A stretch of DNA of 64,000 bases from an uncultured Chthonomonadaceae bacterium (GTDB lineage: Bacteria > Armatimonadota > Chthonomonadetes > Chthonomonadales > Chthonomonadaceae): NCBI GenBank assembly GCA_963835065.1, contig CAWIEK010000054.1, positions 32,001 to 96,000 on the forward strand. The letters are read 5' to 3'. A program made the translations under genes and the position numbers. Each line of letters starts with the position of its first letter. Position 1 is the stretch's first letter. Positions 4,739 through 57,878 of the stretch are shown one piece after another. The notes under the pieces are model-generated. The model did not search any database, was not told the origin of the DNA, and worked only from the letters and a program-made list of their open reading frames with translations.

Positions 4739-4790
4739 AATTTTGTTCTATTGCCCTTACTGCTTCCTAATATGTCGGCAGAATAGGTGT

Positions 4791-5069
4791 TTACGCGGCT
4801 TCCTGCGCCGCGTCAATGGCGTCAAAAGCGGGAATCAGCAGCACTTTCAGGTGCGCTTCATCCGCCAGCATGATCTCTACATCTGCCAACGCTTCGTAGT
4901 AAGGAAACAGCTTGCGCGGTTCTTTGTCCAGAAGCACCGGAACTTTCCAGCCAAATTCATCCTGCTGTACTTCTTCCTCAATCACGGTGAACGTAATACC
5001 GTCCGGGTGACAATCTTTCAGGTACTGGCGAACGGTTTCAGCGACGGAATGTTCATTTTGCTCTGGCAT
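4791..5069 (-). CDS. hypothetical protein (~92 aa) whose 3' end is duplicated at 5761-5827
   Basis: ORF with a GGAGAG RBS, ending LIPAFDAIDAAQEAA. Confidence 0.7.
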   Translation of the reverse strand: MPEQNEHSVAETVRQYLKDCHPDGITFTVIEEEVQQDEFGWKVPVLLDKEPRKLFPYYEALADVEIMLADEAHLKVLLIPAFDAIDAAQEAA

Positions 5070-5740: not shown

Positions 5741-5837
5741 GGTATTCGTCCTCTCCTCTGTGTTGGCAGAATAGGTGTTTACTCCGCTTCCCGCGCCGCG
5801 TCAATAGCGTCAAAAGTGGGGAACAGCCTGCTTAACG

Positions 5838-9784: not shown

Positions 9785-9797
9785 AGAAAGACCTCGA

Positions 9798-9914
9798 AGT
9801 AGTCAGTAGTCAGTAGTCAGTAGTCAGTAGAAATGTTTGTGCATACCAACTTTACGCACTATGCCAGGCTGCCAGTCAAGGATGATTTCTACTGACTACT
9901 GACTACTGACTACT
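9798..9914. repeat. inverted pair of (AGTAGTC)n heptamer arrays
   Basis: (AGTAGTC)~4.7 at 9798-9830 and the reverse complement at 9889-9914, which supplies the hemB stop codon. Confidence 0.92.
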
Positions 9915-10879
9915 TTCCTCGCATACTCCACCGCATGATACGTCAAAATAATATCCGCGCCCGCGCGCTTGAAGGCGGTGAGGGTTTCAGCAATCACGCG
10001 GGCCTCGTCAATCCAGCCGTTGCGGGCGGCGGCTTTGACCATGCTGTACTCGCCCGATACATTATAAACGGCGAGCGGCACATCAAACGTTTCGCGGGCA
10101 TCTCGCAGAATGTCCAGATACGCCAGTCCCGGCTTGACCATCACCATGTCCGCGCCCTCATCAATGTCCTGCGCGATTTCCCGCAAGGCTTCGCGGCGAT
10201 TAGGCGGGTCCATCTGGTACGAGCGCCGATCTCCCATTTGCGGGGCGCTGTCCGCCGCTTCGCGGAACGGGCCATAAAAGCCGCTGGCGTATTTCGCGCT
10301 GTAGGCCATAATCGGCAGGTGTTCAAAGCCGTTCAGGTCAAGCGCCTGGCGTATGGCGGACACCCGCCCGTCCATCATATCGGATGGCGCGATAATATCC
10401 GCGCCCGCTTCGGCATAAGTGACGGCGGCCCGCGCCAAAAGTTCAAGCGTCGGATCGTTGGCAACCGTGTGAACGCCGTTGCGCATTTCCAGTACGCCGC
10501 AATGCCCGTGACTGGTGTACTCGCACAAACACACGTCCGGCACGATCAGCAATTTGTCGCCAACCGCGCGACGGACGGCGCGAATCGCCTGCGGCACAAT
10601 GCCCTGCGCATGGTAGCCACTGCTGCCAACCTCGTCCTTTTCTGCCGGGATGCCGAACAGCATGATTGCCGGAATGTCCAGGCTTGCCACTTCTTCCACA
10701 GCGCGGCATAAATCATCCACCGTATAGCGGAAAATACCCGGCATGGAGGCAATTTCGCGGCTCTGCTTTTCTTCGGTCACGAACATCGGGTACAGCAAAT
10801 CATCCGTTGTCACGCCATGTTCGCGCACCAATCGCCGCATCGCCTCACTGCTGCGCAATCGTCGCCCGCGTTTCATCAT
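9896..10879 (-). CDS. hemB: porphobilinogen synthase
   Basis: DVCLCEYTSHGHCG, APSDMMDGR, MVKPG and YNVSGEY motifs. Confidence 0.98.
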   Translation of the reverse strand: MMKRGRRLRSSEAMRRLVREHGVTTDDLLYPMFVTEEKQSREIASMPGIFRYTVDDLCRAVEEVASLDIPAIMLFGIPAEKDEVGSSGYHAQGIVPQAIRAVRRAVGDKLLIVPDVCLCEYTSHGHCGVLEMRNGVHTVANDPTLELLARAAVTYAEAGADIIAPSDMMDGRVSAIRQALDLNGFEHLPIMAYSAKYASGFYGPFREAADSAPQMGDRRSYQMDPPNRREALREIAQDIDEGADMVMVKPGLAYLDILRDARETFDVPLAVYNVSGEYSMVKAAARNGWIDEARVIAETLTAFKRAGADIILTYHAVEYARKVVSSQ

Positions 10880-10896: not shown

Positions 10897-11494
10897 TACG
10901 GTATGCGCCGTGACCGCCGCAACAACAGGATCATCGCTGCTAATGACGCTCCTGCACTATCAATCATGACGTCTCTTACACAACCATCACGACCGGGTAC
11001 AAAGGTTTGATGCCATTCATCGAAGCGGCAGACAGAACGGCAAAATCAAGCGCTATGCCGATCGCTGCTGATCACGCTTCTGCCAACTATACCGATCATA
11101 GTAGCGTCTGCTTTACAGAACCATCACGACCGAGTACAAAGGTTTGATGCCATTCATCCGAAGCGGCAAACAGAACGGCAAAAACAAACGCTACGCCGAT
11201 GCTTTTTCGATATTGCCAATTAGTCAGAACCTGTAATGCTGCCGTACACAATGTAACCAAGATAGCGTATTCAGTCGCATGCCATCCCTTCACGATGAAA
11301 AACCAACTGACCAGCCAAAATTGTGCAAACCACTGCTGGAAGGCATTATCTTTACTCAATCCCTGTACAAAATGGACAAATGTGCTGAATGGAATTACAA
11401 AGGAAGAGGTAACAAAGATGAGTGTCAGCCACACTCCCACCATACGTAAGATACGCCATCGAGATTTGTTGACGGTTTCGTTATGAAATTTCAA
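10897..11494 (-). pseudogene. VanZ-family membrane protein, split by an internal duplication
   Basis: KGWHATEYAIL and ASDEWHQTFV..RDG motifs. The true C-terminus (RDVMIDSAG...) follows a second copy of the segment at 10976-11062. Confidence 0.7.
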
Positions 11495-22001: not shown

Positions 22002-23277
22002 TATAATGTACCCAAGAATTCGGACAATGGTTTAAGGTGGTGGCTGTGTCACAATGAACATAGGAGAACCCATCATGTCTACAATCCGTAAACGCTATTC
22101 TGCCGAATTCAAGGCCAAGTTGGCTCTGGAAATGGTCAAAGGCAACCACACTCTCGCCGAGATTGCCAGTGACGCGCAAGTACATCCCAATCTGCTGATG
22201 CAGTGGAAGAAACAACTGCTCGACAGCCTGCCCACCGTCTTTGCCGACAAGCGGGTCAAGGACAACAAAGACCAGGAAGAGAAAGAAGCCCAACTCTACC
22301 AGCAGATCGGCCAACTCAAAGTCGAACTCGACGTCCTTCCCTTTCCGGCTCAAAAAAAATCAGGCCGCCTCGGTTGAGACATTGCGGCAGCGGGTCGAAA
22401 CCGACCATGCGCAGATCAGTATTGCCCGTCAATGTGACCTGTTGGGCTTGTCGCGTTCGGGCTACTACTACCAGCCGACAGGCGAAAGCGAACTCAATAT
22501 GCTTCTCATGCGCCTGATAGATAAGGAGTACACCGCCCATCCGTTCTTCGGCTGTCGCAAAATGGTACATGTGCTGCGCACAGACGGGTATGTCGTCAAC
22601 AAGAAGCGGATTGCCCGCTTGATGGCGGTCATGGGCTTGCAGGCGATGGTTCCGGGTCCGAATACGAGTCGTTCCTGTCCTGAGAACCCGGTGTACCCGT
22701 ACCGGCTGCGCGGTGTCAAGATCACAGCGGTCAATCAGGTGTGGAGTTGTGACCTCCCCTCTATTCCCTTACCGAAAGGATTTGTGTACCTGTTCGCCAT
22801 TCTCGATTGGTATAGCCGCTTCGTCCTGAACTGGCAACTTTCCAACACACTCGACCCCACCTTCTGTCTCGAAGGACTGGATCAGGCACTGGGAAGCGGC
22901 AAGCCCACGATCTTCAATAGTGATCAAGGCGTCCAATTTACCAGCAAAGAGTTCACCGGTCGCTTGCTATCCGCTGACATTACGATCAGCATGGATGGGC
23001 GGGGCCGGGCGCTGGACAACATCTTCGTGGAACGCTTATGGCGAACGGTCAAGTATGAAGACGTCTATCTGAAAGGCTACGAAACGCCCAAAGAAGTGTA
23101 CAGCGGATTGTGCGACTACTTTCAGTTCTATAATGAAGCGCGGCCGCATCAGGCATTGGGCTACAAAACGCCGGCCCAAGTGTATCACCAATCGCTCGGT
23201 TGTTAGAGTACCGACAACCGACACAACGGCCACCTTAAACAACGCGAAAATTTGTCTTGACAAAGGGGGACACTATA
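22002..23277 (+). mobile_element. IS3-family insertion sequence (OrfA 22075-22377, OrfB to 23206)
   Basis: RKRYSAEFKAKLALE; A8 slippery site near 22352; rve motifs WSCD, NSDQGVQF and ERLWRTVKYE; imperfect IRs TATAATGTACCC... / ...GGGGACACTATA; no target duplication seen. Confidence 0.93.
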
Positions 23278-23297
23278 CTCGTTGCCTGTATGGATAG

Positions 23298-23339
23298 AAA
23301 CAAAAATTCCTCCACTCCTAAACTTCAGGAATGGAGGAA
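23298..23339 (-). terminator. intrinsic terminator after the orphan recA tail
   Basis: Stem TTCCTCCA..TGGAGGAA followed by a T-run on the minus strand. Confidence 0.7.
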
Positions 23340-23358
23340 CAGAGTGATAGTTACTAAC

Positions 23359-23642
23359 GAAAACCTTAACCCTCGTCTTCGTCCTCTTCCTCAACTTCGG
23401 CCAGATTGACGATGGGGATTTCCGCGCCCTTGTTGCGGATGCGGCCTTCGATCTCGTCCATCAGCGGCTCATTGTCTTCCAAGAAGGTACGCGCGTTTTC
23501 CCGTCCCTGCCCAAGCCGAATGTCGTTGAACGAGAAGTAAGCGCCCGCCTTGTGGATGATGCCCATGTCCACGCCCATGTCCAGCATACTGCCCGAACGG
23601 CTGATGCCCTTGCCGAACATGATGTCGAACTCGGCCTGCCGG
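23359..23642 (-). repeat. orphan duplicate of the recA 3' end (direct repeat of 30144-30427)
   Basis: 284 bp with 7 differences by my alignment; encodes [12 protein letters not shown]...EEEDEDEG. Confidence 0.95.
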
Positions 23643-23738
23643 CATGAGAACGTTCCACATTGCAGGAACAAACCGAAGTGGCGTATAATAGGACACAACA
23701 AAAACAAAACCGAAGAAGATTAGCCAGAGGAGATTAGC

Positions 23739-24032
23739 ATGGATGAGGCGACCTATAAACAGTGGTGTCCGTTGCACTGGCGAAGCGCGTTAGGGGAACC
23801 GTTAAGCGCGGAAGAACAGGCGCGTTATGAGGCGGGATTGCGGCAGTTGGAAGCGGAGGAAAATATCGGATTCGACATGGCGGGGTTACAACAAGTTCGT
23901 GAGCAAATCCGGCAAACGGAGGCGGAACGGCAGCAGTTGGAAGCACGGCGTCAGGAGTTGGAAGCCCGTATCGCGCGACTGGAAGCCGCGATGAGTGAGC
24001 GCGACAAGCAGGCTCTCGGAATTGGACGTTAG
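23739..24032 (+). CDS. small coiled-coil protein (paralog A)
   Basis: GAGGAG RBS; N-terminal ~40 aa nearly identical to the 24625 ORF. Confidence 0.8.
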   Translation: MDEATYKQWCPLHWRSALGEPLSAEEQARYEAGLRQLEAEENIGFDMAGLQQVREQIRQTEAERQQLEARRQELEARIARLEAAMSERDKQALGIGR

Positions 24033-24034
24033 GC

Positions 24035-24568
24035 GTGGCGCACCCGAAACATGAACAGGTGCGCCGACGTTACGCCTTTTGCTGCGGCTATTGTGGCGTG
24101 TCGGAGGAAAGCGCGGGCGGCGAACTAACGATTGACCATTATCAGCCGGTTTCTGCCGGTGGCGATAACAGCGACGACAATCTGGTGTACGCCTGCTGGC
24201 GCTGCAACCTCTACAAAAGCGACAATTTTCCTTCTGCTGCCGGTATTGCCATTGGACACCGTCTGCTGCATCCGCTATTGGATGATGTCAGCGCCCACAT
24301 ACTGGCGAACGAAATCACCGGCTATCTGGAACCCCGCACGGAAACAGGGCATTTTCACATTCTCACGCTACACCTGAACCGTCCGGCCTTGATAATCCAC
24401 CGTCAACGCTACTGGCTGCGTTCCCTGTCCGATGACGTGCTGCGAATGAATGTGGAAGATGTTCAAAGGCTGCGCAGTCTGCTTGCCGATGCTGAAGCGC
24501 GTTTGCTTCTCATCGAGACAGGTGTAAACATTGCTGCGGACTCGAACAGGCCAGACAGTGAAGAGTAA
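24035..24568 (+). CDS. HNH endonuclease
   Basis: CGYCG, IDHYQP...GG....NLVYACWRCN..K motifs. Confidence 0.92.
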   Translation: MAHPKHEQVRRRYAFCCGYCGVSEESAGGELTIDHYQPVSAGGDNSDDNLVYACWRCNLYKSDNFPSAAGIAIGHRLLHPLLDDVSAHILANEITGYLEPRTETGHFHILTLHLNRPALIIHRQRYWLRSLSDDVLRMNVEDVQRLRSLLADAEARLLLIETGVNIAADSNRPDSEE

Positions 24569-24624
24569 CCTGAGCGGCGTAGCGAATGTAACAGCGTAAG
24601 AATGTCACAAAGGAGGCAGGCATA

Positions 24625-24900
24625 ATGGAGGAGTCAGCATATAAACAATGGTGGCCGTTGCATCGGCGAACGGCAGTGGGCGAGCCACTGAGCGCGGAAG
24701 AACAGGCGCGTTATGAGGCAGGATTGTGCCAATTAGAAGCGGAAGAACCGCCCATCCAAAGTAGCATTGATGAATTGCGGCAGGCGCGGCAACAAATGTT
24801 AGCGGCGCAAGCAGAGTACCATCAGTTACAACGGCAATACGAAGCCATGCAAGCCGAAATAACAACCTTGGAAGCGCATCTTGATGAACCTACAAAGTAG
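24625..24900 (+). CDS. small coiled-coil protein (paralog B)
   Basis: YKQWWPLH.R.A.GEPLSAEEQARYEAGL.QLEAEE; AAGGAGG RBS. Confidence 0.78.
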   Translation: MEESAYKQWWPLHRRTAVGEPLSAEEQARYEAGLCQLEAEEPPIQSSIDELRQARQQMLAAQAEYHQLQRQYEAMQAEITTLEAHLDEPTK

Positions 24901-25007
24901 TTGTTAAAAGTCGGAAAGTAAGCAGGTAAATAGGCATGTGTCAGAGAATTAAGCCATATCTACTCTGAGGTTCTTGCCACAACACTGTCGCGGAGGTTGA
25001 TACAACA

Positions 25008-28000
25008 ATGATTAGTAAAGAGGCATCTTTTATACGACAAGGCTTTGACCATCTTGGTGAACTAAACGCTAAATTGCGTGATCTCCGGGGTTTTGATACT
25101 CTCGCAAATGAACTTCTTCAAAATGCTGATGATGCCAAGGCTACGCAAGTTGTATTCGATGTTCGTGACAACTTTCTTATGGTTGAAAACAATTCTGTTT
25201 TTCAGGATTGTGGCGACATAACTCAGGATGAATGTTCATGGGTGTTTGATCCTGCTATCAAGCATCGGTGTGACTTCCATCGTTTCATAAATATGGCAGG
25301 CGGAGACAAACGAAACCAAGAGGGAACAACCGGAGCCTTCGGTTTTGGCTTTGTATCTGTTTATCAGCTTACGAACCATCCTGAACTGATTTCGGGAACT
25401 CGCCATTGGCAGATGCACCCGGAGGATACAGAAGACAAACGCATCCATATACAGGAGATGTCAGAACCCTTCAATGGAACGCGGTTCATTTTCCCATGGG
25501 CAACCGATCCAGAATGTACATTACGCAGACGCTTGGGTTCTCCTGCTATCCGCCCGGAACAAATTGAAGATTTTGCTGCAAAAGTGTCTGTAAGTATTCC
25601 GCAATCTATCCTTTTTCTGCATCATATCAAGCGTGTTGAGATCAGAAGAAACGGCGTACTTATCAAAGTTGTTGAGCGGACGCGAGAAGGTAATACTACA
25701 ACAATCTTTGATGGAAAACAAGCGACTATCTGGCATGTTTTTGAGGGGAACTTCGATTCTCAAGCCGCTTTTTTAAGAAACTTACATAACGGCTACATTG
25801 AGGATAAAAGACAATCGAAGGTCTTGATTGCTATTTGTCATGATGCTGCAAATGTGCAAGGATTGTACTATGCTACATTGCCGACACAGCATCAAACTAA
25901 CCTGCCAGTTCATGTAAATGCCGACTTCTACCCCGAATCTAGCCGGAAGAACCTTGCGTTTGGCGTAGGGTACGAAGGTGATTGGAACATGGCTGCTATT
26001 GCTGCCGCTGCCGAAGCGCTTGCCAACGCCTTACCCGAACTTTGCAACCTTCTTGGCTATCAGAGCGTTTGGCGGTTGATTAAGCAGGTGGAGCAAGCGC
26101 ATCGTAACGCTCAAGGGCAAATCAAGCAGACTGCAACGAAGTATTGGGAGGTTTTGAAACCTGTTGTGAGTCGCTCGGCCATTGTCTATACATCAACAGG
26201 AGAGTGGCGCACACCCGATAAAGCGCATTTGCTTGACAAACGGGAAATAGAGCAACCATGCTTGCCAATATTGGAACAACTGAATTTACCAATTGTTCAC
26301 CCGGAACTGAATACCTACCACTCTATTTTGACGTCGGTTGAAGTTAACGTTCTTAATGCCTTTGATCTTAGCGAGGCTCTTACGAACTACGGGCTTGATG
26401 AACCTGTTAGTGCTGATGAGGCTCCGCATTGGCTGCGTGACCCGGAGCAGCATGAGTTGCTTGCTGCGGAAGTTGCTATTTTGTTGGGGCGGGTCAACCA
26501 AAGTTCCTCGCTTGCCAAGCAGAAAATGAGCGACTGCGCCATTGCCAAATCCACAAACGGCAGGTTCTGTCCTCCCTCTGTTCTGTGGAACGCTTCGTTG
26601 GAAGTTGTGAGCGCGTTTGAACCTTTAGGAATGACTGCGAAATTTGCCGCGTTTGACAATCCAGTGGGAATTAAGAAGTTAGTCAGGGACTTTGATGTTG
26701 CAGCCCTCTTAACGCTTTTGGAACAGGTATCTCCAGACACCTTCGCGCATCTGTGGACACAAGACGCAACACAGATATTAGACTTAATTGGCCTATGCGC
26801 CGCCTACAAAGCTACCTTTCGTCAGGATACACAGGCACGGGAAAGACTACGCAAACTAAAAATATGGCCCGCGGGCGACAGATTACATTCGCTGCACCTA
26901 CTTGATGTTCCCGGCAACTTTGTTGATCCGTTCGGGCTTGCCACACTCGTTGATGAGCGAGTTGTCTCGGAGTACCACAAATTCTTGACAGAGGATTTGA
27001 AGGCGCAAGAGCTTACTATTCAACACTATGCGGGCAAAAAGATTCCAGAGTGGTGTAACTCAGGCACTCAGATCAACGCGGCCGATTGCCAGCGCCTGCT
27101 CACTGAACTTGCAAAACACATAAACACCCTGCAAAATGAGACGCAAGTAAAAAGCGCCCTAGCAACCTGTGCGCTGATTCCCTGTCAAGACAACACTCTT
27201 CGTGCCGCGAAAGCTGTCTATTTCGCCTCGGAAGAAGTATCAAAGCTTTTAGGTCAGAACGCGCCTGTTGCAGTGATTCCCGATGAAAGCAAACTCAGTG
27301 TTGAACCTTTTCTAAAATGGCTCGGTGTTGCCACACTTCCACGTCCTGCCGATGTTATGGCGCGAATCAGTACGATAAGCCAACAGCCCTCGGCAGTGGC
27401 TGCAAACCGCGAATCGATGCAGAAGATTTTCTACAGATTGGGCAAATACTGGGATAAGTATAGCCCTGAGCAGCATAAAGAGTTTGAAGCGCTACGTACA
27501 CATAAATGGCTGCCTGTTGAAGACAGATATGATCGCTGGTTTGCGCCTTCCGAAGTGCATACACTAATCCAAAAGCATCTTTTCGCGACAACCGGACTGT
27601 TTTTGGATGTTCCTTACAATGAGCAGAATGAAGTTTCAGCATTAAGGCAGTTCTTGCCAATCGAAACAAGACCGTCCTGCGAACTTGTTGTCAGGCATCT
27701 TCAGAATTTTGCGAATGAAGACAAAGAGGTTCATAGAGCCGTTTATGCCTTCTTAAATGAAGCTGCTCAGAATGGCAACCCGGCAGTACAACGTCTTAAA
27801 GGGCAACGCTGCCTTTCATTAGGAGGCAAGGGATACGTTCAGCCTGATCAAGTTTTTTGGAAGCAACACAAATTCCATCCCTATCTGCTCTCACTGAGCA
27901 GTGACTTTGAAGCCTATCGTGACTTGCTGAAAGTTCTTCAAGTACGTGAAGAACCACAGGCGGCAGACGCTATTGACTTGCTTCGTACGATAGCGGATAC

Positions 28001-29749
28001 CAACGACAATAAGCGTCTCGATGACGCCAAGCATGCCACTATTATGGAGAGTTGGGCGCTGATTAGTGACGCGCTGCAACAAGGATTGATAACCTCCGGG
28101 GCATTAGAGCCGTTACGCGCATGTAAGGTAGTTCCGAATCAGGAGGGATACCTTCAACTACCACGATGGATGTTCTTTGAAGATAAGCCTAACCTTGCAG
28201 AGCGTTTTGGCGATTTTTTGAAGGATAACGTCATATCTCGAACGCCATCCACGGGGCTGGGAATGGAACTTGCAGGGGTACTCCCCTGAAGTTGAGCCGT
28301 TGAAATCAATTTGGTAGAATGTACCGACCCCATACCTGCAGAGGATTTACAGCAGGTTTTACAGGAACGTCAACACCTGATTGAGCGCGTAATCTACCCG
28401 GAACGAACTGAAGATCGACGTTGGAACACTGACGCGCTGGATCTGTTGAAACTCCAATGGTGTTCATGGCTTGAAGTTGGCTATACCCTGAAAGCGTTCA
28501 ACCGAGCAACTCCGGGAGACACAGAAGCGGTTGATACTTTTTATGATTTTGCTGACAATACCTTGTATATCCAACGCAGCAGCGAGGTACCGTGGCTTGA
28601 GATTTCCAGTGGGCTGGCTTATGTGATGAACCGAGACGCCAAAGAAGGCACGGTTGCAGCAACTCTTGCCTATGCATTAAGTGCGCAGTCGTTCCAAAAA
28701 GGCAGTCAGGCACTTGATAAGTTAAAAGTACCGCCGCTTCAAGCAGATGAAGAATATGAAGCCGCTTTGTCTATTCCTGCCAGTATGGGCGGTATTGATA
28801 CTTCGGAAACAGACGGCTTTGAAGTCAACACCGATATTGAAGATGGGCCGATAGATGACGCCGTTGATGAGGAAAAGCAAGAGCAACAAACCAACAAATC
28901 TGATGAAGTGCGTGTCGCCTTCAATAGTGAAAGTAAACATCAACAGGCACAACACCCCATAAGGGAAGTGGCAGATTCAACTCACTCATCTTCTACAGAA
29001 GCTAATGATTCGATGAGCGACAGACCTTTACCTACAGAGGCGTCTGATAAGCCTGCTAACACCAGCAAGGCGAATGACAAGGGCATGAATAGCAAGGAAC
29101 AACGGACGTTCCAAATATGCCTGCCAACACTTCCAAAAATGTGCAGGCGGACACACCGCATAACATACAACATGAACCACGTTCGCCTGAGAACACAGCA
29201 AAACGCTCAATTTCAGAAGCCGAATCACAGCACAATAAGGCACAGCATACCCCTTCACGCTCTGCGCCAGATCACAACTCGGAAAGTCGCGCCGATTACG
29301 CGGGACGAATGCGTTCTTACGTCTTTTCGACATCAACAACTAAGGCGGATGAAGAGACGCGCCGACGCAATACGGAGCCGATTGACAAAGCAGGGATGGG
29401 GCGTGTTCTTGCCGCCGAGCAACAGGCAGGGCGTATACCCGAAGCCATGCCGCACAATAACCCTGGCTACGACATTTACTCGCTTGACGCAACAGGTGAA
29501 AACGAGCGTTATATCGAAGTGAAGTCGCTTTCCAGCAATTGGCAGGTAAAGGGAGTTCTGGTTTCCGCAACGCAGTTCACGATGGCGCAACGTTTGGGGC
29601 AAAAGTTCTGGCTATACGTTGTTGAACGGGCAGATCAGGATGATTTTTGTATTACACGCATCCAAAATCCCGCGCAACGTGTCAATGAATTTATGTTTGA
29701 TGATGGCTGGCGGGCTTGCATGGAAGGAGAAGATGTAGGAGAAGATTAA
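25008..29749 (+). pseudogene. sacsin-like GHKL ATPase ... DUF3883 (NOV C-terminal) nuclease, interrupted
   Basis: ELLQNADDA, GAFGFGFVSVY and LPVHVNADF at the N-terminus; NNPGYDIYS...YIEVKS at the C-terminus; two in-frame TGA at 28287 and 28293 and a frameshift near 29100. Confidence 0.8.
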
Positions 29750-29997
29750 CACATCACATGACGATATTGTGGACAGTTGCACTCTGCTACCAGACGTTTG
29801 TAGTGGAGCAGGGCGCGGCGTACTTCGGGCGTGAGTTCACCCGGCGGCTGGGACAAGGTACGGAGAAACACTTCGCCTTCTTCCTGCGTCAGGATGCGCC
29901 GGCTTTGCGCCATTGCTTCGGGATCGGTATACGCGCCGCCCTCGCACTCTTCTTCTGCCGATGTTTCTTCCAATTCGCGCTTAATAGTCGCTGCCAT
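29746..29997 (-). CDS. DUF1778/TacA-like orphan antitoxin-like protein
   Basis: ILTQEEGEVFLRTLSQPPGELTPEVRRAL resembles the DUF1778 C-terminus. Confidence 0.5.
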   Translation of the reverse strand: MAATIKRELEETSAEEECEGGAYTDPEAMAQSRRILTQEEGEVFLRTLSQPPGELTPEVRRALLHYKRLVAECNCPQYRHVMC

Positions 29998-30068
29998 TGT
30001 GTTTCGCCTCCTCTGCACAGTATAACACGGCACATGGCAAAGTTTCAACAAGTGAGCAATGCGCCGCC

Positions 30069-30109
30069 AAAACAAAAACACCCCTTCTCCTAATGTTGGA
30101 AGAAGGGGT
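30069..30109 (-). terminator. recA intrinsic terminator
   Basis: ACCCCTTCT/AGAAGGGGT stem followed by TTTTTGTTTT on the minus strand. Confidence 0.8.
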
Positions 30110-30150
30110 ATGTCTACGAGTGGACGCCCGGTGAGGGGATTTAGAAAACC

Positions 30151-31213
30151 TTAAATCTCGTCTTCGTCCTCTTCCTCGACTTCGGCCAGATTGACGATGG
30201 GGATTTCCGCGCCCTTGTTGCGGATGCGGCCTTCGATCTCGTCCATCAGCGGCTCATTGTCTTCCAGGAAGGTGCGCGCGTTTTCCCGTCCCTGCCCAAG
30301 CCGAATGTCGTTGAACGAGAAGTACGCGCCCGCTTTGTGGATGATGCCCATGTCCACGCCCATGTCCAGCATACTGCCCGAACGGCTGATGCCCTTGCCG
30401 AACATGATGTCGAACTCGGCCTGCCGGAAGGGGGGCGCGACCTTGTTCTTGACGATCTTCACCTTGACCCGCGCTCCGACCGCATCGGTTCCGTTCTTGA
30501 CGGTTTCCGTGCGGCGCACTTCCATGCGGACGCTGGCGTAATACTTCAAGGCCATGCCGCCGCTCGTGGTTTCCGGGTTGCCGAACATCACGCCGATCTT
30601 CTGGCGCAACTGGTTGATGAAAATGGCCGCCGTGTTCGTGCGGTTGATGCTGCCCGCCACTTTGCGCAGGGCTTGCGACATCAGGCGCGCGTGAACGCCC
30701 ATGTGCGAGTCGCCCATGTCGCCTTCCAGTTCCGATTTCGGGAACGAGGGCGGCAACGGAGTCCAGCACCACGATGTCAATGGCGCTTGACCGGATCAGC
30801 GCGTCCATGATGTCCAGCGCTTCCTCGCCCGTTGTCGGCTGCGAGATGAACAGGTTGTCAATGTCCACGCCCAGGTTCTTGGCGTATTCCGGGTCAATGG
30901 CGTGTTCCACGTCCACATACGCGCACACGCCGCCCTTTTTCTGCGCCTGCGCGATGGTCTGGAGCGCAATCGTGGTTTTACCCGACGACTCCGTGCCGTA
31001 AATTTCCGTGATGCGTCCGCGCGGAATGCCGCCCACGCCCAATGCCATGTCGAGGGCGATGGAGCCGGTGGAAATGGAGTCCACCTGCAGGCGCATGGAC
31101 TGTCCCAGGCGCACCACGCTGCCTTTGCCGAACTGCTTCTCAATGCCGGAGAGCGCCATGTCGAGCGCTTTGGTTTTTTTGGCGTCTAACTTGCCGATTT
31201 CTTCGATTGCCAC
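30151..31213 (-). CDS. recA: recombinase RecA (apparent 1-nt frameshift near 30740)
   Basis: [34 protein letters not shown] and KNKVAPPF motifs. Confidence 0.97.
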
Positions 31214-47291: not shown

Positions 47292-47427
47292 TCCGCTCTG
47301 TAACGCAACACAGCCTTGCGGCATAAACGCAAGGCTGTTTTTACGTCACGCTATGGGTTTGTCGGCTTACGCGGCGGGAACTTCCTGCCCGACTTGGAGA
47401 GCCAGCTGTTCGGCTAATTCCAGATTG
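47292..47427. repeat. diverged direct repeat of 48609-48840 (glycosyltransferase 3' end plus downstream hairpin)
   Basis: Both copies encode NLELAEQLALQVGQEVPAA* and carry the AGCCTTGCG..CGCAAGGCT hairpin. Confidence 0.9.
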
Positions 47428-47523
47428 TGCCTGCCGCTTAATCTGTTTCGTTTCGGCAGCCTATGGTATAATCAAAGCAGGATTGCATGGTGATACTGCA
47501 ATAATCACTGCGAAGGAAGGTGC

Positions 47524-48066
47524 ATGTCCGAAAACAACGCCGACAGTCTTCTCGATTATCTTTTATCCGCTTCTGCGCTCCCGTTGCCACCTGCCAGAGA
47601 AGCCGAAGAAGTGGTTCAGGAAATTCTTTCCTGCCTGTACAATCCGGCGCGTAGCGGTGGCGTTACCTATAACCTGTACTTTGGCGATCAGTGGGGACAG
47701 CCCTTATACGCTGTTGGCTTGAACAATGATTGGACTGAGGAGGCGGATGCAGCGCAACTGAGTTATGCGCTCCGTGAGTTTTTGCATAAGCATCAGGGAT
47801 GGCTCAGTAATCCGCGTTGCTGTATCGGCGTGTGGCGCGGTGGTGCAGAAGGCGATTTTGTGGCTATCCTGGACGTTTCCGTACTCGTCTACAATGAAGA
47901 GGTAGCGCGTCGCTTCGGCAGAGATAGCAACCAGATTGCCATTTTCTCCCTGCAAGAAGGCCGCGAAATTCCAACAGAAGGAACCGGCGAATCCACCGCA
48001 GCGCGCTTGCGCCGTTTGGAACAGGAAGACCGCATAACGCTAGATTTAGGAGCAGACAATGAGTGA
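47524..48066 (+). CDS. hypothetical protein
   Basis: 180-aa ORF with a GGAAGG RBS, overlapping the next ORF. Confidence 0.7.
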   Translation: MSENNADSLLDYLLSASALPLPPAREAEEVVQEILSCLYNPARSGGVTYNLYFGDQWGQPLYAVGLNNDWTEEADAAQLSYALREFLHKHQGWLSNPRCCIGVWRGGAEGDFVAILDVSVLVYNEEVARRFGRDSNQIAIFSLQEGREIPTEGTGESTAARLRRLEQEDRITLDLGADNE

Positions 48067-48367
48067 AACAATTCTATCGCCGGACGCTGCCACAGAGGAA
48101 CCGTCGCGCCTGTATACGCGATGGCGGGGCGTGACCGTTTCGCATATAGAGTACGGCAACCCTCTCCACCTGACCTTTGTTATTGCTCTGACATTGGACA
48201 ATGGCGCAATCAGGCACTTTTCCAAAGCGGTGTGGGTAACGGATGCCATTTTGCAGGAACGTTTGCGCCGCGAAGTCAGACCCGGCGACCACATCCGCGT
48301 CCATCTGGAAACCGATTGGGCGGACGCTGACATTCCAACGGTTCTCAAAGATTTCTGTCTCGCATAG
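48059..48367 (+). CDS. hypothetical protein (OB-fold-like size)
   Basis: AGGAG RBS; 102 aa. Confidence 0.65.
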   Translation: MSETILSPDAATEEPSRLYTRWRGVTVSHIEYGNPLHLTFVIALTLDNGAIRHFSKAVWVTDAILQERLRREVRPGDHIRVHLETDWADADIPTVLKDFCLA

Positions 48368-48383
48368 GAGCATTTCGGCGAAG

Positions 48384-48830
48384 ATGCAGCATACCTGTCC
48401 TGTTTGTGGATACGATCAGCTTGCAGAACCTCCGGCAGATAACATGATTTATCCGTGTTGCGGGACGGAGTTCGGCTATCACGATTTCTCCTTCTCGTAT
48501 ATCGAACTGCGGCTGAAATGGCTTGACGCGGGCGCTCAGTGGCACAGCCGCCTTTTGCCGTCTGCACACTGGTCGGCAGAAACGCAACTTTCTCGTGCCG
48601 AATTGCTGCCGCTCTGTAACGCAAGACAGCCTTGCGGCCTAAACCGCAAGGCTATTGTCACGTCACGCTATAGTTTTGTTGGCTTAGAGCCTATACCGAT
48701 AGGGCTTGTCCTTGCGTCTGAAAGACGCTTGCACTTTCCTGCCGGGTATTTTCAATACCCGGCCAATTGGGATAGGCTCTTACGCGGCGGGAACTTCCTG
48801 CCCGACTTGGAGCGCCAACTGCTCGGCTAA
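48384..48830 (+). CDS. small Cys-rich (CPVCG...PCCGTEFG) protein reading through into the repeat
   Basis: AGGAG RBS and zinc-ribbon-like motifs; the natural end is probably near 48610. Confidence 0.6.
   Translation: MQHTCPVCGYDQLAEPPADNMIYPCCGTEFGYHDFSFSYIELRLKWLDAGAQWHSRLLPSAHWSAETQLSRAELLPLCNARQPCGLNRKAIVTSRYSFVGLEPIPIGLVLASERRLHFPAGYFQYPANWDRLLRGGNFLPDLERQLLG
48687..48779. mobile_element. 93-bp MITE with a TTA target duplication
   Basis: TIRs GAGCCTATACCGAT / ATTGGGATAGGCTC; TTA on both sides; absent from the paralogous site at 47367. Confidence 0.85.
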
Positions 48831-51800
48831 CTCCAGATTGTTGCGGGCTTCCTGATGAGTTGGGTATTGGGCGAGCGCCTGCCGGTAGGATACGACGGCG
48901 GCGGCATAGGCTTCCGTGCGGAAGTAGCAGTTGCCCAGCACGAAGAAGCCGCCCTCCTGTTCGGGGCTGACTTCCAATCCGGCAAGATAGGTTTCCGCCG
49001 CCTTGTCGTACACGCCCAATTGGTACATCAGGTCGCCCGCGTTGAAGTAGGCGTTGCCATACGTCGGGTCGCGCTGAATGGCCTCGGCGTAGTATTCCAG
49101 CGCTTCGCCCGGCGCGTTCAATCCTGCCAGTACGCGCCCCAAATTGACGCGCGCTTCCACCGACTCGGGACGCAGGCGCAGCAGGTTTTCGAACGCGGCG
49201 CGCGCTTCGTCCAGCAGATCGAGCTGTTCGCAGCAGGCCGCCAGTCGCGCCTGCGCCTCGTCATCGTCGGGTTTCTGCCATGCGGTGTGGCGCAGGTGCG
49301 GCAGGGCGCGTTCGTACTCCTTGCCCGCGTAATAGATCATGCCCAAATCGCGGATCGCGTCGTCGTGGGCCGGGCTTTGCGCCAGAACCATTTCCAATTC
49401 TTCACTTGCTTCCCACGTCCGATCCTGCTGCGTCAGGATGATGGCAAGCAGATACCGCGCTTCCACCATATTCGGCTGCTCTTCCAGGACTTCTTGACAG
49501 CACGGAATGGCTTCCACATGCCGATCCTGCCCGACAAGCGCCAGCGCAAGCCCGTACCGCGCCTTGTACGTGGACGCGCCCGCATCCCCGGTCTGCGTAA
49601 AGTGCGTATCGCTTGTTTCTTCGCGCCCTATGTCAATCGCCGCCCGGAACGCCATTTCCGCCGCCTCGTACTGTTCCGTGTGCAGCAGGCAGTAGCCGCG
49701 CGAAAATTCAATGCCCGCCTGCCGGAACCCTTTGGCGTCCGCCATCGCGCACACGTCCAAACCTTCCCAGGGCTGCTGCATCCGGTGCAGGGCGGTGGAC
49801 CATTCGACAAACAGGGTGACGCCGAACTCTTCCTCCTTGCCCACGCCCGGCGCGGCCAGGCTGAAATTGCGCGCGGCGTTGTCCATATCACCGAAGGTAA
49901 AGTAGGCGTTGCCAAGATTGAACAAATGGAAATCCCGGAAACCTTCGTCCGGGCACTCCTCCACTTCCCGCGTCAGCATACGGATAAACCGCTCGTGCTT
50001 GTTGCGCAGCGTCATGATCTCGCCCGCATACCCGAAGTGGTCAATCAGCAGGCCGTCGAACCGCGCATACGTGTAGCCCAACGCCTGCAAGGAGCGCAGG
50101 TTCTGCTCGTGGATACGCCCCTCGAACTTTACGCCATCCACGCGCCGAAACAGGCGGCAGGCATGGTGAACCGCCATTTCGCCGCCCATCTCCTGCCCGG
50201 GTTTGGGCCGCGCCGCGGACGTAAGCCAGTTGTGAAACTTGACCATGTAGCCGCCCACTTCGGCAGGCGCGTTCCGCATGGCCTCGCGGAACAGAGGCCC
50301 GCTCCCCGGCGCAATCTCTTCGTCCGCATCCAGCCACAACACCCAATTGCCTGTCGCGTGTTCCAGCGACAGATTGCGCGCTTCGGCAAAATCGTCGTTC
50401 CATTCATAGGGCACGATCTTCGCGCCATATTCGCGGGCAATGTCCAGCGTCCCATCCGTCGAGCCGGTGTCCACAATCACAACCTCGTCCACAACGTCTT
50501 TCACCGATTCCAGACAGTTACGCAGGAACCGCTCCTCGTTTTTGACGATCATACACAGGGAAAGTGATGAGTGATGAGTGATGAGTGATGAATGGTCCTG
50601 TTCTTCTGTTCCCTGTTCCCTGTTCCCTGTTCCCTTTATCGCTTCTTCCGCCCGCTCATACCGCTCCATCAGGCTGCGATAGGCGGGGGCGCGCTTGACG
50701 GCGGCGCGCTGCCTGTCGGGAACGCCGCGCAGCAGTTTGCGGGCTTTTTGCAGCACGGCGGTTTGGGCGCGCTCCACCGTGCGGCGCAGGTTGGGGTCGT
50801 CGGGCGTGGCCGCAAAGGCGAGAAGCACGTTTTCCAGCGCTTCTTCCGGCTGGCCTTCCGCCAGCAGAATAAAGCCCAGGTTGTGATGAAAGTCACGGGT
50901 ATTAGGCGACGCGGCAATGCCCTGATGCAGCAGTTCCAGAGCGCGCGTTTTATCCCCGTTCGGTAACACGCGGCGGCAAGCGCGTTCACCACGTCCCAAT
51001 CGTCCGCCCGCTCGATCAGGCAGGCATCCAGTTCTTCGACGGCGTTTTTCCAATCGCCGTTACGCGCGGTTTCCAGCGCGGCCTGTTTGCGGTCCTCGTA
51101 CATATCCCCGGCAGCTCGCAGTCCGGGCGTGGCAAAACTTCCCGGCAGGTTCAGCCCGCCCAACCCGGTATTTTGCCACCCCCCGCCCAGGCTCAAACCG
51201 CCCAGACCCATAGGGAGGTTGAGGGTTGAGGGTTGAGGGTTGAGAGGGGAAGACAATGCTGAATGCTGAGTGATGAGTGATGAATGGGATTCTGATTCAT
51301 CATTCATCATTCCGCGTTCAGCACTGATTTTCCCTGTTCCCTGTTCCCTGTTCCCTGTTCCCTCACCCAGCGCGGACAGGCGCTCACCGGCAATCTGCGC
51401 GGCGTGATGCCAGGTATGTTTGGCCGCGATGTCGCGGGCGGCTTGCGCGCCTTTGGCCTGCGCTTCTTCCGGGTGGGCGGCGACGTGGCGGAGCAGTTCG
51501 CTCAGGGCGGCGCGGTCAGGTTCGGCCCAGAACGGATAATCTACCGTCGGCATGTTGCCGACGTTCTTTTCCGCCATGCGCTGCGCTTCGGCGGGGATGA
51601 GATAACTATTCCCGGAGTTAGCGAAATCGAGAGCCGCGCCGAAATCAGTAACGATAGTTGGCTTGCCGCAGGCCATCGCTTCCGCAATCGGCAGGCCGTA
51701 TCCCTCGCCCCGGTACGGATGTGCCAGGCAGTCACACGCGGCGTACAAACCAGCCAGTTCCGCTTCGCTCATGTCCTCATTGATATATACAATGTGCGCG

Positions 51801-52710: not shown

Positions 52711-55373
52711 CTTCTATCGTCAAAATCGGCACACAGCGCGCCTGCGCCAGTTCGCGCCAGAAGGGGGGCAATTGGTCGGCGATGAGCGCGTCGGCGACGT
52801 GCAGCAGTTTCCAGCAATCGGTTTGCGGAAGCGGCTGATGCAGCAGGGTGATGTTGGGCAGGCGGTCGGCTGTGATTGCCAGAGTTTGCCGCAGGAATTG
52901 CTCCATTTCCCACAGCAAGGCTTGCGCGTTCGGATGCGTGGCGGGGTCGGCCCGCAGCATCAGCAGAACCGGGTCTGTGGGCGCGTAGGCCAGTGTGAAG
53001 GCGCGTACCAGCGTCTGCCACTCCTCGGCGCGATTCCAGTCCGGCAGGGCCAGCAGACGCTTGATGGCGACGGGCGAACTTACACCGGCCTGCTGTTGCG
53101 GCGCTTCTTCCGCTTGTGGCCCTTCTTCCGCTTGCGGCATAGCCTGCCTCGGAGAAGTTACATCGCCTTGCTGTCGCTGCAATGCCTGCGCCTGACGCCG
53201 TAATGTCTGCGTGGCGGGAATGAGAGGCGCGTATACCGGACAGCCATTCAAAATTGCCAGCCATTCGTCCAGTCCGGTGAGGGCATCATTCGCGCGCTCC
53301 ACGTCCAGGCACAGACGCGCCGATTCTTCTCGCGCCTGCACATGAAACGGCGAAGCCGTCAGGGTTGACCGGTAGGCGGCAAGCGCTTCTTCCACCCGGC
53401 CCAGGGCGCGCAAGGCGCAGGCAAGGGCGTTATGCGCTTCGCCCAATGCAGGCATTTCCGCAACAGCGATTTCGGCATGACGCGCGCTGTCCGCGAACTG
53501 CCCCCGCGCAAACGTGATTTCCGCCAGGGTCAGATGGACTCGGCACGTCAGCAACGCTTGCATCTCAGAGCGCCAAGCCTCGCTTTCGGGCGCGTGTTCG
53601 CCATAAATGCGTTCCAACGCCACATCGAACCATTGAAAACAGCGCGGAAACACGACGCCCTGCAGCTGCCAGGTTGCTAAATAGTTGATAGTTGATAGTT
53701 GATAGTTGATAGGGAGGAGGGAACTATGAACTTTCTGCGTCCCACCGCTTTGTGATTCGGCCTGCAACTGCTCCTGAACTTCCCGCAGAGTGTTCTCGCC
53801 TTCCTCCGTTCTGCCTCCCGCAAAATACAAGTATGCCAGATTGAGCCGGGCCAGTACGTACTCCGGCTCTTCTTGCGCCAGTTGCCGCGCCAGCCCAATC
53901 GCCGCCTGCAATTTTTGCCGCCCATACTGCGGCGATACCGCGCACCGCGCCATCTCCCCGGCAAGTACCGATTTGAAGAGGTTGAGAGTTGAGGGTTGAG
54001 GGTTGAGGGGAACAAGAGTTGATAGTTGATAGTTGATAGTTGATAGGGTATCCTCTCCTGCATGTATCTTGTATCTTGTATCTTGTATCTCTTCCCTTTT
54101 CCCTTTTCCCTTTTCCCTTACCCCTTCTTCCGCCTTACTGTACACGGCGACGTTACAGGTCAGCAGCCAATGCGTGGCGAGCTGAAGGGATTGCTGCGCG
54201 GCGGGCAGGCGGCAGAAGGCGCGCGGAGGAAGCGAACCGGCCCGGCGAGAAGCGACGAATGGCTCCAACCGGTTGAGCAGGTCGGCAAAATGATGCGCGT
54301 AACTGTGCTGTGTGACTCGTTCGCGGCCATTGCGGGCGGTTTGTTCGCGCTCAAATCTGTTTTCGGGCGCGAGGTAATGAGCGAGCAGGTCTTCCAGATT
54401 GCTGTCGTTGTACAAAACGCAATGCTGGAGATCCGCGTACACATCGCGGATTTCGCGGTTTTCGGCTTCGTAGAACATCAATGCGCCGCAGGCCGGGGCC
54501 TCATACGCCCGCATGTTGGCTTCGCCCCGGATGCTGCGGTTGAACACGATTTTGGCGCGGTTCATCAGCCGAACGTACTCATCCCCGTAAACGCCACTGG
54601 TCAGCACAACTTTATAGCGCGTGGATAAAGCCGCCACCCGCGCCAGCCACCGCGCCCGCTCCCATTGTATGGCGTGATTGAAGTTGCCGATCATCAGAAT
54701 GTCTATGTCGCGCTCGATGAAGTCGGTGTTCAGGTATTCGGGTGTTCGGTGTTCAAGGTGTTCGGTATTCGATGTTTGGTATTGGGTGTTTGGTATTGGG
54801 TATTTGGTGTTTGGTGTTTGGTGTTGGGTGTTCGGGTGCAGGAAGGCGGGACGCAGGATTGCGCAGAACGCGGTGCTTGTCTGGTTCGTGCGCCCAGAGC
54901 AGGCTGTGCAGGACGCTGGTAAATCCCATGTCGCGCAAACGCTCACAGCCCACACGATCCGCCACCAGAACGTCGAAGAGGCTGCCTACCGCCCGCATTG
55001 CCTGCCCACCCAGATTCCAATCCCCGAACACGCCCACTGTCAAACAATCGGCGTCTTCCAGTCCGGCGGGAATCGGGTTGTACTCAGGACTCCAGTGGAT
55101 GTATACTTCCGGCATCCAGCCGACAGGGCATTGCGCCAGTACGTCCGTCCACTCCCTATCCGGCGTGACATTCAGATGGGCGTACCCGGCCCCAAACGCC
55201 AGAATGTCATCCCCGGCCTTTTCCCGGCCCGGCAGCGAACGCTTTTCCGCCACTTGCGGCATCTGATTGGTATATCCGACGAGGAGGCGCATAGCAGTCT
55301 CCGAAGTAGTCAGAAGTGAGTAGTCAGTAGTCAGTAGAAATGCCTGTCTACTTAAGTTGTGCGGCATAGTCAT
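52691..55373 (-). CDS. CgeB/Glyco_trans_1_2-like glycosyltransferase with TPRs; frame break within a heptamer array
   Basis: RAKIVFNRS..GEANMRAYEA motif; the N-terminal ORF stops at 54753 within the array at 54725-54836. Confidence 0.78.
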
Positions 55374-55427
55374 GGCTTACAAGAAGAGGTTCCTCTACTG
55401 ACTACTGACTACTCACTTCTGACTACT
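55305..55427. repeat. perfect 33-bp inverted pair of (AGTAGTC)n arrays sharing one variant unit
   Basis: 55305-55337 is the exact reverse complement of 55395-55427. Confidence 0.92.
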
Positions 55428-56770
55428 CTCCTTACTTCTTCTTCAATCCTTGCCGCGACAGGCGCATACGTGAAATGGGTTTCCAGATGGGCGCGGGCGG
55501 CTTCGCCTAAACTTCGGCCTTCCGCGCGGTCTTCAAAGGCGCGGCGCATCAATTGCCGCAGGTGGGCGCAGGACGGCTCCGCCCAACGGTGGCCGCGATA
55601 CGTGGGGGTTTCGCGCCAGGCGGCTTCGGGCACATCCACGACTTCGTACTCCAGAACGTAGCTGTTGGCCGCGTTCATAAATTCCGTTTGGCCGCTCCAG
55701 CCGGTTGCGATCACGGGCAGTCCCATCGCCATCGCTTCCATGTACGGGCGGCCCCAACCCTCGCCCCGCGACGGCATCACGTAGCAATCGGCGGCGCGGT
55801 ACAGATGGGGCATACGCGCATCCGGTACATTCGCGTCCTGCAGGACAATATCGGGAATGTGATTCAGGTCGCCTTTCAAAACTTCGGAGATGTAGGACGC
55901 CATGCAGTCCAGCATCTGCGCCCCCGTATAGCCGAGCGAACTGTGCGTTTTGACAATCAGCGCGACCTCTTCCCCAACCTGAAACTCCTCCACAAACGCC
56001 CGCAGCAGAACGTCCCACCCCTTGCGCAATGTCCAATCGAAGACGGCCAGAAAATTGAAACCGCGCGCGCCATTGATTTGGAGGGGAACGCAACCGGGAT
56101 TGTACGGCGCTAAATCAATTGCGCCCGGAACCACGCGCAGCTTGTCCCGCTCCACGCCCGCGCCCGCAAACGTTTCCACGTTGAACGCGCTCGGAACCCA
56201 CACGGCATCCATCCGGTTACACGCCTGCGCCCAGCCTTCAGGCAGGCGATCCGTTTCAAACATCGTGCGGCCTATGTTGGCGCGGGCGTTAGGGTCGCGC
56301 TCAAATAGGGGCGCAAGAATATGGCAGACGGAAATTCCTCCCCGAAGCGCGGGCTGCCGCATCAACTGCTGCAAAATCCGCTCCCGTTCGGCGGGCAGGA
56401 CAACGGCCTTATCGCTCCAGCGAATCGCCCGCGCCGCCACCTTCACCCCCGCCTGATGCAAGGCAAACAGAAAATGCCGCGCCTCGTCCGCATACCCGCT
56501 TGGATCGCGCAGGGGAGCGCGCCAGGTCAGGGGAAAGGATGAAGGATGAAGGATGAAGGATGAAGAGTCTGTAGCTGATAGTTGATGGTTGATAGTTGAG
56601 CGCATTTCTTCTGTCTTCTGTCTTCTGCCCTTCTTTCCTATGTATCGGAAAGCGCGGCGTGGAAATTTAGCGGTTTGCAACGGCCTGTAAGACTTACCGG
56701 TTTGCAGGCGGTTGTCTTGTGATGTTTCCAGCCTGTCTGAAGCGCGTTTGAATTCTGCCGACAATTCCAC
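55409..56770 (-). CDS. GT4-family glycosyltransferase with a repeat-containing N-terminal region
   Basis: MFETDRLP, RKGWDVLL and PSRGEGWGRP..EAMA motifs; start uncertain. Confidence 0.9.
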   Translation of the reverse strand: MELSAEFKRASDRLETSQDNRLQTGKSYRPLQTAKFPRRAFRYIGKKGRRQKTEEMRSTINHQLSATDSSSFILHPSSFPLTWRAPLRDPSGYADEARHFLFALHQAGVKVAARAIRWSDKAVVLPAERERILQQLMRQPALRGGISVCHILAPLFERDPNARANIGRTMFETDRLPEGWAQACNRMDAVWVPSAFNVETFAGAGVERDKLRVVPGAIDLAPYNPGCVPLQINGARGFNFLAVFDWTLRKGWDVLLRAFVEEFQVGEEVALIVKTHSSLGYTGAQMLDCMASYISEVLKGDLNHIPDIVLQDANVPDARMPHLYRAADCYVMPSRGEGWGRPYMEAMAMGLPVIATGWSGQTEFMNAANSYVLEYEVVDVPEAAWRETPTYRGHRWAEPSCAHLRQLMRRAFEDRAEGRSLGEAARAHLETHFTYAPVAARIEEEVRRVVRSE

Positions 56771-57291: not shown

Positions 57292-57765
57292 ATGAAAATT
57301 CAGTACATCAATCCGTTTGTAACCGCCTCGTTTACGGTCATCGAGCAGGCACTGGGCATGAAGGCGCAGAAGGGGCCGCTTGCCATGCGGCCGGAACTGT
57401 TCACCACGCAGCAATGCAACATTCTCATCGGCCTGACCGGCAACGTGCATGGACAGATCATCTATGGCATGAGCCTGACCACTGCGGACAAAATCGCTTC
57501 CCTTATGCTGGGACAGCAGGTACGCACATTTAATCAACTGGCGGCAAGCGCGATTGCCGAATTAGGCAACATGATTACGGGCAATGCTTCCGCGCTGCTG
57601 GCCGAAGCCGGAATCGTCTGTGATATTACCCCGCCCACTGTCGTGCGCGGCGCCAACCTGAAAATGACCACGCTGGCAATTCCCGCGCTCGTCGTGCCGC
57701 TGTGCCTGGAATTAGGCGAGATCGAGCTGACGGTGTGTTTGGAGGAGGTAGACGGTAGACGGTAG
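57292..57765 (+). CDS. cheX: chemotaxis phosphatase CheX
   Basis: YINPF, IGLTG and SAIAELGNMITG motifs. Confidence 0.92.
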   Translation: MKIQYINPFVTASFTVIEQALGMKAQKGPLAMRPELFTTQQCNILIGLTGNVHGQIIYGMSLTTADKIASLMLGQQVRTFNQLAASAIAELGNMITGNASALLAEAGIVCDITPPTVVRGANLKMTTLAIPALVVPLCLELGEIELTVCLEEVDGRR

Positions 57766-57873
57766 ACGGTAGACGGTAGGAGAACTCCTTCTTGTAAGCT
57801 ACTACTGAAGTTGAGAACTGTGAACGGTAGACGAGTATTTCTACCGTCTACTATCTACCGTCTACCGTCTACC
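57747..57873. repeat. inverted (GGTAGAC)n / (GTCTACC)n pair between convergent cheX and prs
   Basis: Arrays at 57747-57779 and 57841-57873; the cheX stop lies in the left arm. Confidence 0.92.
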
Positions 57874-57878
57874 TCCTC

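Follow-up and report, generated by a model that had tools for sequence, protein, structure and literature searches.

The recA gene of an uncultured Chthonomonadaceae bacterium, located in a 64,000-nucleotide stretch (the window) of contig CAWIEK010000054.1 (positions 32,001 to 96,000; assembly GCA_963835065.1, referred to as G000), is followed, beyond 6501 bp of cargo DNA, by a second, orphan copy of its own 3' end. The recA case is not peculiar: the same geometry was found at approximately 23 unrelated genes. Host recombination without a dedicated recombinase probably accounts for it, when circle-first and linear integration are taken jointly. The chances appear about even that an integrase-free insertion-duplication left the orphan recA tail as its scar, a trimmed and circularised fragment from a related strain having entered by one crossover in the tail. 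Comparisons were made with two congeners (G001 and G002), a genome of another genus (G013), and family genomes (G017, G021, and G023).

The direct repeat (23359-23642 / 30144-30427) is 284 bp in length and gap-free, with its copies 6785 bp apart, and corresponds to the last 91 recA codons on the minus strand plus 7 nt beyond the stop. The features concerned are as follows.

30151..31213, minus strand: recA, the sole full copy in the assembly (Pfam RecA/RecA_C), with a +1 C frameshift near 30739-30742
30144..30427, minus strand: working recA tail, last 91 codons plus 7 nt, ending ...EDEI
30078..30111, minus strand: intrinsic terminator A, after the working tail (fold z -2.55)
23359..23642, minus strand: orphan recA tail, ending ...EDEG, beginning just past the KVAPPF motif and without the 5' part
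23306..23340, minus strand: intrinsic terminator B, after the orphan tail (fold z -3.33)

The two tails differ at seven nucleotides. Five differences are internal and all synonymous: K (AAA/AAG), A (GCG/GCT), R (CGC/CGT), L (CTG/TTG), and V (GTC/GTT); the remaining two lie in the last sense codon, I (ATT) versus G (GGT). A perfect match of 93 bp is found at the 5' edge of the repeat. The initial annotation had described this repeat, its spacing, the synonymous-only internal differences, the I/G last codon, and a different intrinsic terminator after each tail, all of which were reproduced. Its proposal that both tails come from functional recA alleles was also borne out: a null model matched for substitution type predicted 2.3 synonymous changes against the 5/5 observed (p=0.008). 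An extra C at about 30739-30742, which splits recA into two open reading frames (ORFs), had been missed; it is probably a consensus error, because the base was absent from G002 and from the contigs of both public runs (see below), and 19/220 orthologues tested in this assembly were frame-broken. The orphan tail sits in an open 113-codon frame (23366-23707, minus strand), which would encode the whole C-terminal domain of RecA; no ribosome-binding site for this frame was visible by eye.

A genome-wide search for orphan 3' duplicates with synonymous divergence, as recommended in the initial annotation, was carried out. Genes (7091) were called using a simple dicodon model, and the 4894 of at least 150 amino acids were surveyed for same-contig repeats within 30 kb, non-paralogous and in at most three copies. 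Direct repeats comprised 31 tail copies downstream, 6 tails upstream, 6 heads upstream, 3 heads downstream, and 9 and 8 internal segments; inverted repeats numbered 7 in all. The downstream bias of orphan tails (31/37) was significant (binomial p=4e-5). Inspection by eye, ahead of the synonymous test, removed eight of the 31 rows and left 23 curated cases; those removed were C35:34928 (opposite-strand double count), C40:16941 (WD40 repeat), C34:29238 (24 bp), C56:736, C68:81726, and C3:98259 (repeat extending into a larger duplication or the adjacent gene), and C60:137300 and C37:235604 (possible decayed paralogues). When all 31 rows were kept, 127 synonymous and 76 non-synonymous codons were found. 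In the 23 curated cases, 99/140 differences were synonymous (null mean of 41 and maximum of 61 in 5000 draws), and this excess indicates that the orphan tails were working alleles.

Curated tails ranged between 32 and 313 bp (median 87 bp) with working/orphan identities of 81-99%, and their cargoes between 0.58 and 7.7 kb (median 1.4 kb) with a mean GC of 0.51. Several tail pairs exchange one stop codon for another. The anchor genes include recA, dnaA, ppdK, galT, a DHH-family gene, kdpD, an M16 peptidase, a subtilase, and a tyrosine recombinase gene. Cargo consists mostly of toxin-antitoxin/defence modules: PIN, ParE, and HNH genes, AAA_21 ATPases, and an N6 methylase fragment. Zones around the curated tails, 1.3% of the genome, contain 4/30 PIN hits (p=6e-4) and 4/18 HNH-family hits. 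Except for the tyrosine recombinase anchor gene, no integrase was detected among 119 proteins from 20 loci and the window. At dnaA (G000:C68:32026-41552), a 106-bp orphan tail lies 7.7 kb downstream, and cargo would therefore have been captured beside this gene; no second dnaA tail was found in the 27 other family genomes with a match, in a search of low sensitivity. Mirror-image cases were also observed, in which gene heads with promoter are duplicated upstream around cargo (G000:C1:77461-84583 and C51:17593-25045), and their differences were strongly synonymous: 17/3 and 25/4, respectively.

The most informative anchor was ppdK, after which orphan tails are stacked: 2 in G000, 1 in G001, and 3 in G013. 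They start 341 and 201 nt (G000), 369 nt (G001), and 397, 327, and 271 nt (G013) before the gene end. Six different joints in three genomes therefore indicate that there is no fixed att site, and stacked tails with differing junctions argue against both site-specific integration and assembly artefact. In G000 (C63:128133-136391), ppdK and its two orphans carry three different C-terminal alleles; the orphans match the gene at 97% and 90% identity, and the distal one is decaying. G002 retains the ancestral context, a site with one target copy and no insert, in which ppdK leads directly into the sequence found after the distal orphan of G000 (188/219 nt); the distal orphan and the following HEPN gene match the DNA immediately after ppdK in G002. 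The same polarity was found at the AcrB locus (34/39 nt). At ppdK in G001, a separate duplication of 434 bp encloses a PIN gene together with an unknown gene. The clearest array was that of G013 (C1:3479950-3490043), in which an IS3 element and two coiled-coil/HNH modules lie between three orphans, followed by Rhs fragments; synonymous/non-synonymous differences in these tails were 21/4, 25/1, and 6/1. Two extra ppdK pieces in G023 were not counted: one is the tail of another paralogue, and the other a fragment linked to an IS and located at a distance of 110 kb. Upstream of ppdK in G002 (C1:1243856-1243958), the ppdK end with its terminator is present as an inverted copy of 103 bp. The suggestion in the initial annotation of recurrent gene-tail-anchored capture thus extends genome-wide and to independent genomes.

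The 6501-bp span between the recA tails is foreign in composition (GC of 0.49 versus 0.57 genome-wide). ORFs were tabulated from 50 amino acids upward; the annotated features of this span, together with the adjoining insertion element, are given below.

23643..23738, plus strand: cargo end; a non-homologous joint (23642/23643) in the sequence, then a promoter-like stretch (TTGCAG 23660, TATAAT 23684)
23739..24032, plus strand: small coiled-coil gene, HNH partner
24035..24568, plus strand: HNH endonuclease
24625..24900, plus strand: second small coiled-coil gene, 52% identity to the first
25008..29749, plus strand: Tiamat tmtA, sacsin-type ATPase with NOV_C/DUF3883 nuclease (PADLOC PDLC03969; Pfam SACS, NOV_C)
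29746..29997, minus strand: 83-amino-acid ORF, no known family
22002..23279, plus strand: IS3-family element, outside the repeat pair and not part of the island, ends approximate

A domain search of six cargo proteins and the small ORF detected no integrase or transposase domains, in agreement with the initial annotation, which had overlooked the IS3-family element about 30 bp past the terminator of the orphan. The promoter-like stretch is conserved in homologous modules on contig C44 and in G001, and was absent from the output of a consensus promoter scan. The PDLC03969 profile matched tmtA in three pieces (1046/84/211 bits); the sacsin-type ATPase and C-terminal nuclease domain expected of TmtA were both found, and a single intact reading frame was not, the gene being broken in the assembly by two in-frame TGA codons (28287 and 28293) and, near 29100, by a frameshift. 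The coiled-coil/HNH pair (23739-24900) recurs as cargo in G000 and G013, with 18 HNH hits genome-wide; the two pairs between the ppdK tails of G013 are homologous to the recA cargo (55-57% identity). It is a candidate toxin-antitoxin or defence pair.

At recA, low-GC cargo lies between two tails that are allelic and filtered by selection, and a single abrupt joint is non-homologous; such a structure requires one homologous and one non-homologous joint. A donor fragment from a related strain may have comprised the recA end, its terminator, and the downstream cargo; it would have been trimmed and closed into a circle, with 23642/23643 as the putative closure point. One homologous crossover in the tail would leave recA whole and displace the former tail, terminator included, to the distal end of the cargo. 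By analogy, the 284-bp tail with its perfect 93-bp stretch would suit this trimming, ligation, and single-crossover route. Repeated events would stack tails with the newest cargo nearest the gene, as supported at ppdK and AcrB. Internal duplications would break the gene, so that only tail or head duplications would persist, and toxin-antitoxin/defence cargo and diverged tails may persist by resisting looping-out; both suppositions draw on general knowledge. RecA is predicted to excise a 6785-bp circle through the 93-bp match, leaving recA intact. The circle and single crossover proposed in the initial annotation have a laboratory precedent (PMC3240628).

Several observations weigh against this circle-first reading. 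The longest perfect run is 15-25 bp in 9/23 tails (median tail 87 bp), and tails this short are poor substrates for a RecA crossover, unless later eroded. The polarity is opposite at the subtilase locus, where the DNA shared with G002 (305/361 nt) is that following the working copy, and the remaining comparisons among the 19 made gave no polarity signal. No empty recA site was found in G001 or G002, in which unrelated DNA follows recA and the region is rearranged. DprA was found in both congeners (2/3 genomes) and not in G000 (92% complete), and Ku was absent from 3/3 genomes. The orphan-tail rate in random samples of relatives was 4/1248 genes (G001, 1/488; G002, 2/486; G023, 1/274, the last, at 0.4 Mb, being the family-level sample beyond the congeners), and that at unrelated loci with short flanks was 1/883; G000 was not significantly higher than either (p=0.29 and 0.08, respectively). 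No contig or read in the public runs spans both tails or clearly crosses 23642, and a contig of run X2 carries recA, terminator A, and the small 83-amino-acid ORF in the working arrangement, which fits equally a donor lineage and a long-standing resident state.

A linear integration of the homology-facilitated illegitimate recombination (HFIR) type, with one homologous anchor, one illegitimate join, and no circle, is a possible alternative of lesser probability. Either the recA body would anchor the fragment, with the join inside the resident tail, or the anchor would lie downstream and the orphan would be the broken end of the donor fragment. Long tail homology is unnecessary in HFIR, which fits the many short tails; these suit such a join better, or were eroded. 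The presence of ComEC (3/3 genomes of the genus), which speaks for the circle-first route as well, and the subtilase polarity are also in its favor, and HFIR has been invoked for orphan arrays in Vibrio type VI secretion system (T6SS) clusters (PMC5361080). On the other hand, it generally gives a deletion with 3-10 bp of microhomology rather than a duplication (PMC3240628), whereas a duplication is seen at recA, where a recipient deletion would show only against an empty site, and no microhomology was demonstrable at its joint, homologous cargo ends diverging before the join. The polarity at ppdK and AcrB excludes the downstream-anchor form at these loci. A site-specific element of the e14/icd type, its integrase lost or borrowed in trans and its att core at the KVAPPF/RQ motif, appears quite improbable at recA, in spite of an anatomy identical to that of icd/icdC, synonymous differences included (PMC13626634), the perfect match at the 5' edge of the repeat, and the status of recA as a known integrase target (PMC4405046). 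As a genome-wide cause it is strongly disfavoured: approximately 23 different genes are involved against six tyrosine and two serine recombinases, six joints differ at ppdK, and no motif was enriched at the curated joints (best 6-mer p=0.07). Variable joints at one gene, together with the many different genes, therefore speak against a site-specific enzyme as the general cause. A second recA tail was present in 1/39 family genomes with a match, namely, G000 itself, and in 0/62 unrelated recA loci with at least 5 kb downstream; exact-pattern scans detected the tail pattern in no metagenome or viral contig, and a protein scan found distant loci only (at most 71% identity).

We consider it very unlikely that a break made by the cargo HNH or a restriction enzyme triggered the long duplication. 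Such double-strand breakage was suggested for restriction-modification genes (PMC2853133), and the share of HNH-family hits in tail zones and the two pairs in the G013 array would agree with it; however, most cargoes lack an HNH or restriction gene, no cut-site motif was enriched at the joints (restriction-type palindromes, judged by eye, included), and break-and-copy would yield identical rather than allelic tails. The chance of a strain-chimeric assembly, with two haplotypes laid in tandem, is similarly slight: the assembly is error-prone, as its frame-broken orthologues indicate, and no independent read spans the structure, but separate near-complete genomes share the ppdK structure with other joints and cargo, nested orphans decay and match the ancestral context in G002, and a chimera would show no preference for the final 30-310 bp of genes. 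Local tandem duplication and deletion with neutral decay of the spare copy has a next to negligible probability. In its favor, curated differences lean to A/T in orphans (67 versus 45), and four of the five internal recA changes are derived in the orphan, every one to T; nevertheless, the synonymous excess survives the matching of substitution types, stop codons are exchanged for stops, and the cargo is foreign in composition. The allelic divergence of the tails rules out local duplication, which the type-matched test refutes in aggregate.

The initial annotation had referred to three other loci with similar geometry, which were partly recovered in the window; one case is clear:

47366..48841, minus strand: 63-bp tail of a TPR/glycosyltransferase gene (48780-50969), repeated (47366-47428 / 48779-48841)

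This case encloses 1.35 kb with two small ORFs, and 4/4 differences are synonymous. The other two differ: at 4773-4839 / 5761-5827, the tail of a 92-codon gene is copied upstream around a ParE pair, a reversed geometry, and 10933-11200 is a non-coding tandem repeat. A similar 92-amino-acid gene was found near ppdK in G023. Tandem heptamer repeats occur at many intergenic sites in the window (e.g., 9795-9919, 55302-55432, and 57738-57882), often as inverted pairs 45-150 bp apart, and some extend into ORF ends; they resemble the cyanobacterial short tandemly repeated repetitive (STRR) elements. In the genome, 3/6 tyrosine recombinases are located at tRNA genes: two in tRNA-Phe and tRNA-Lys islands with repeats, and a third beside tRNA-Arg. 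An array of 16 tRNA genes (G000:C49:430274-432286) lies beside a tyrosine integrase and a 15-kb island flanked by tRNA-Phe repeats.

The survey of recA-downstream DNA in relatives that had been recommended revealed variable sequences, with a second tail in G000 alone. The order recA-recX-rny-ymdB is conserved in G001, G017, and G021, although in G001 it is interrupted by small genes amounting to about 2.3 kb; in G000, recX is on a different contig from recA. The two public runs hold a small share of the window (0.09 and 0.06), and their contigs come from relatives. Among the matches listed, a contig of run X1 covers 23358-23479 only and might be another orphan. In run X2, a joint between 24033 and 29792, which connects a coiled-coil gene with the small ORF, was not counted as evidence, one of its sides being only 30 nt long.

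Taken by itself, recA is an ordinary example; what is added comes from the genome-wide count and from the tails stacked at ppdK. Double crossover at flanking core genes explains replacement, not addition, of content, and orphan gene tails provide a countable, ordered record of additive events, each carrying a piece of the donor or resident allele. They may be mined in any genome by the asymmetry and synonymous-excess tests, and specific circles are predicted. A broader proposal, which we regard as doubtful, is that gene-tail insertion-duplication is a main, repeatable entry route for toxin-antitoxin/defence modules in Chthonomonadaceae, with core-gene ends (ppdK, recA, and dnaA) acting as integrase-free "integrons" that stack time-ordered cassettes, the displaced tail naming the donor and circles re-entering the same gene end in other cells.

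Routes of this kind were already known. "Insertion with long target duplication" (PMC2853133) was defined for restriction-modification genes, with repeats of 45 to about 420 bp that are not always identical. It shares with the present structures a small insert, an absence of mobile-element genes, long variable direct repeats, and addiction-type cargo, and was described mostly in competent species, with amplification through the repeats proposed. The recA insert also has the size (6501 bp, under 20 kb), duplication (284 bp, over 30 bp), and lack of another mobile element of that class. It does not, however, contain both R and M gene homologues: the cargo comprises coiled-coil, HNH, tmtA, and small ORF genes, with no methyltransferase, and toxin-antitoxin, HNH, and Tiamat modules take the place of restriction-modification genes. 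Unlike in that system, the repeats here are biased to gene 3' ends, demonstrably allelic, approximately 23 in a single genome, and stacked. The closest experiment is E. coli conjugation (PMC3240628), in which the lacZ end was duplicated in 56/60 clones, over 109-950 bp in the 14 that were sequenced. These duplications arose through degradation and re-circularisation followed by a single crossover, ten times more often than HFIR. Its products likewise have variable-length gene-end duplications flanking foreign DNA without an integrase; the substrate was engineered and the homology identical, whereas natural alleles of 81-99% identity and many shorter tails are concerned here.

The e14/icd system (PMC13626634) also has a whole gene at one end and a C-terminal fragment with synonymous differences at the other, and its excision swaps the icd tail; the restored whole gene and displaced tail were found at recA. 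However, e14 is a 15-kb prophage with SOS-induced excision at a fixed site, and no recombinase and no fixed crossover position were found here (the latter as judged at ppdK, recA offering one event). The mobile element of Vibrio cholerae (PMC4405046) is likewise an island at recA. It differs in carrying an integrase, in lying between inverted repeats, and in disrupting the host recA while supplying a complete divergent one; none of these traits applies here. T6SS/Rhs orphan arrays (PMC5361080) exhibit the same polarised displacement of older modules from a conserved anchor without an integrase; there the anchor is upstream and the effector end replaced, whereas housekeeping gene tails are duplicated here. 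Fewer than half of gene-acquisition hotspots encode an integrase (PMC5635113), and the integrase-free ones have the same cargo beside core genes, no mobility proteins, and host recombination; the double crossover described in that paper replaces content without a duplicated tail, whereas the present route adds it. No genome-wide survey of orphan gene tails was found in the literature searched, in which subscription papers were poorly covered, and this is weak evidence of absence. To these known systems, the present analysis adds a quantified asymmetry, a synonymous test matched for substitution type, and arrays stacked at the same gene in two genera.

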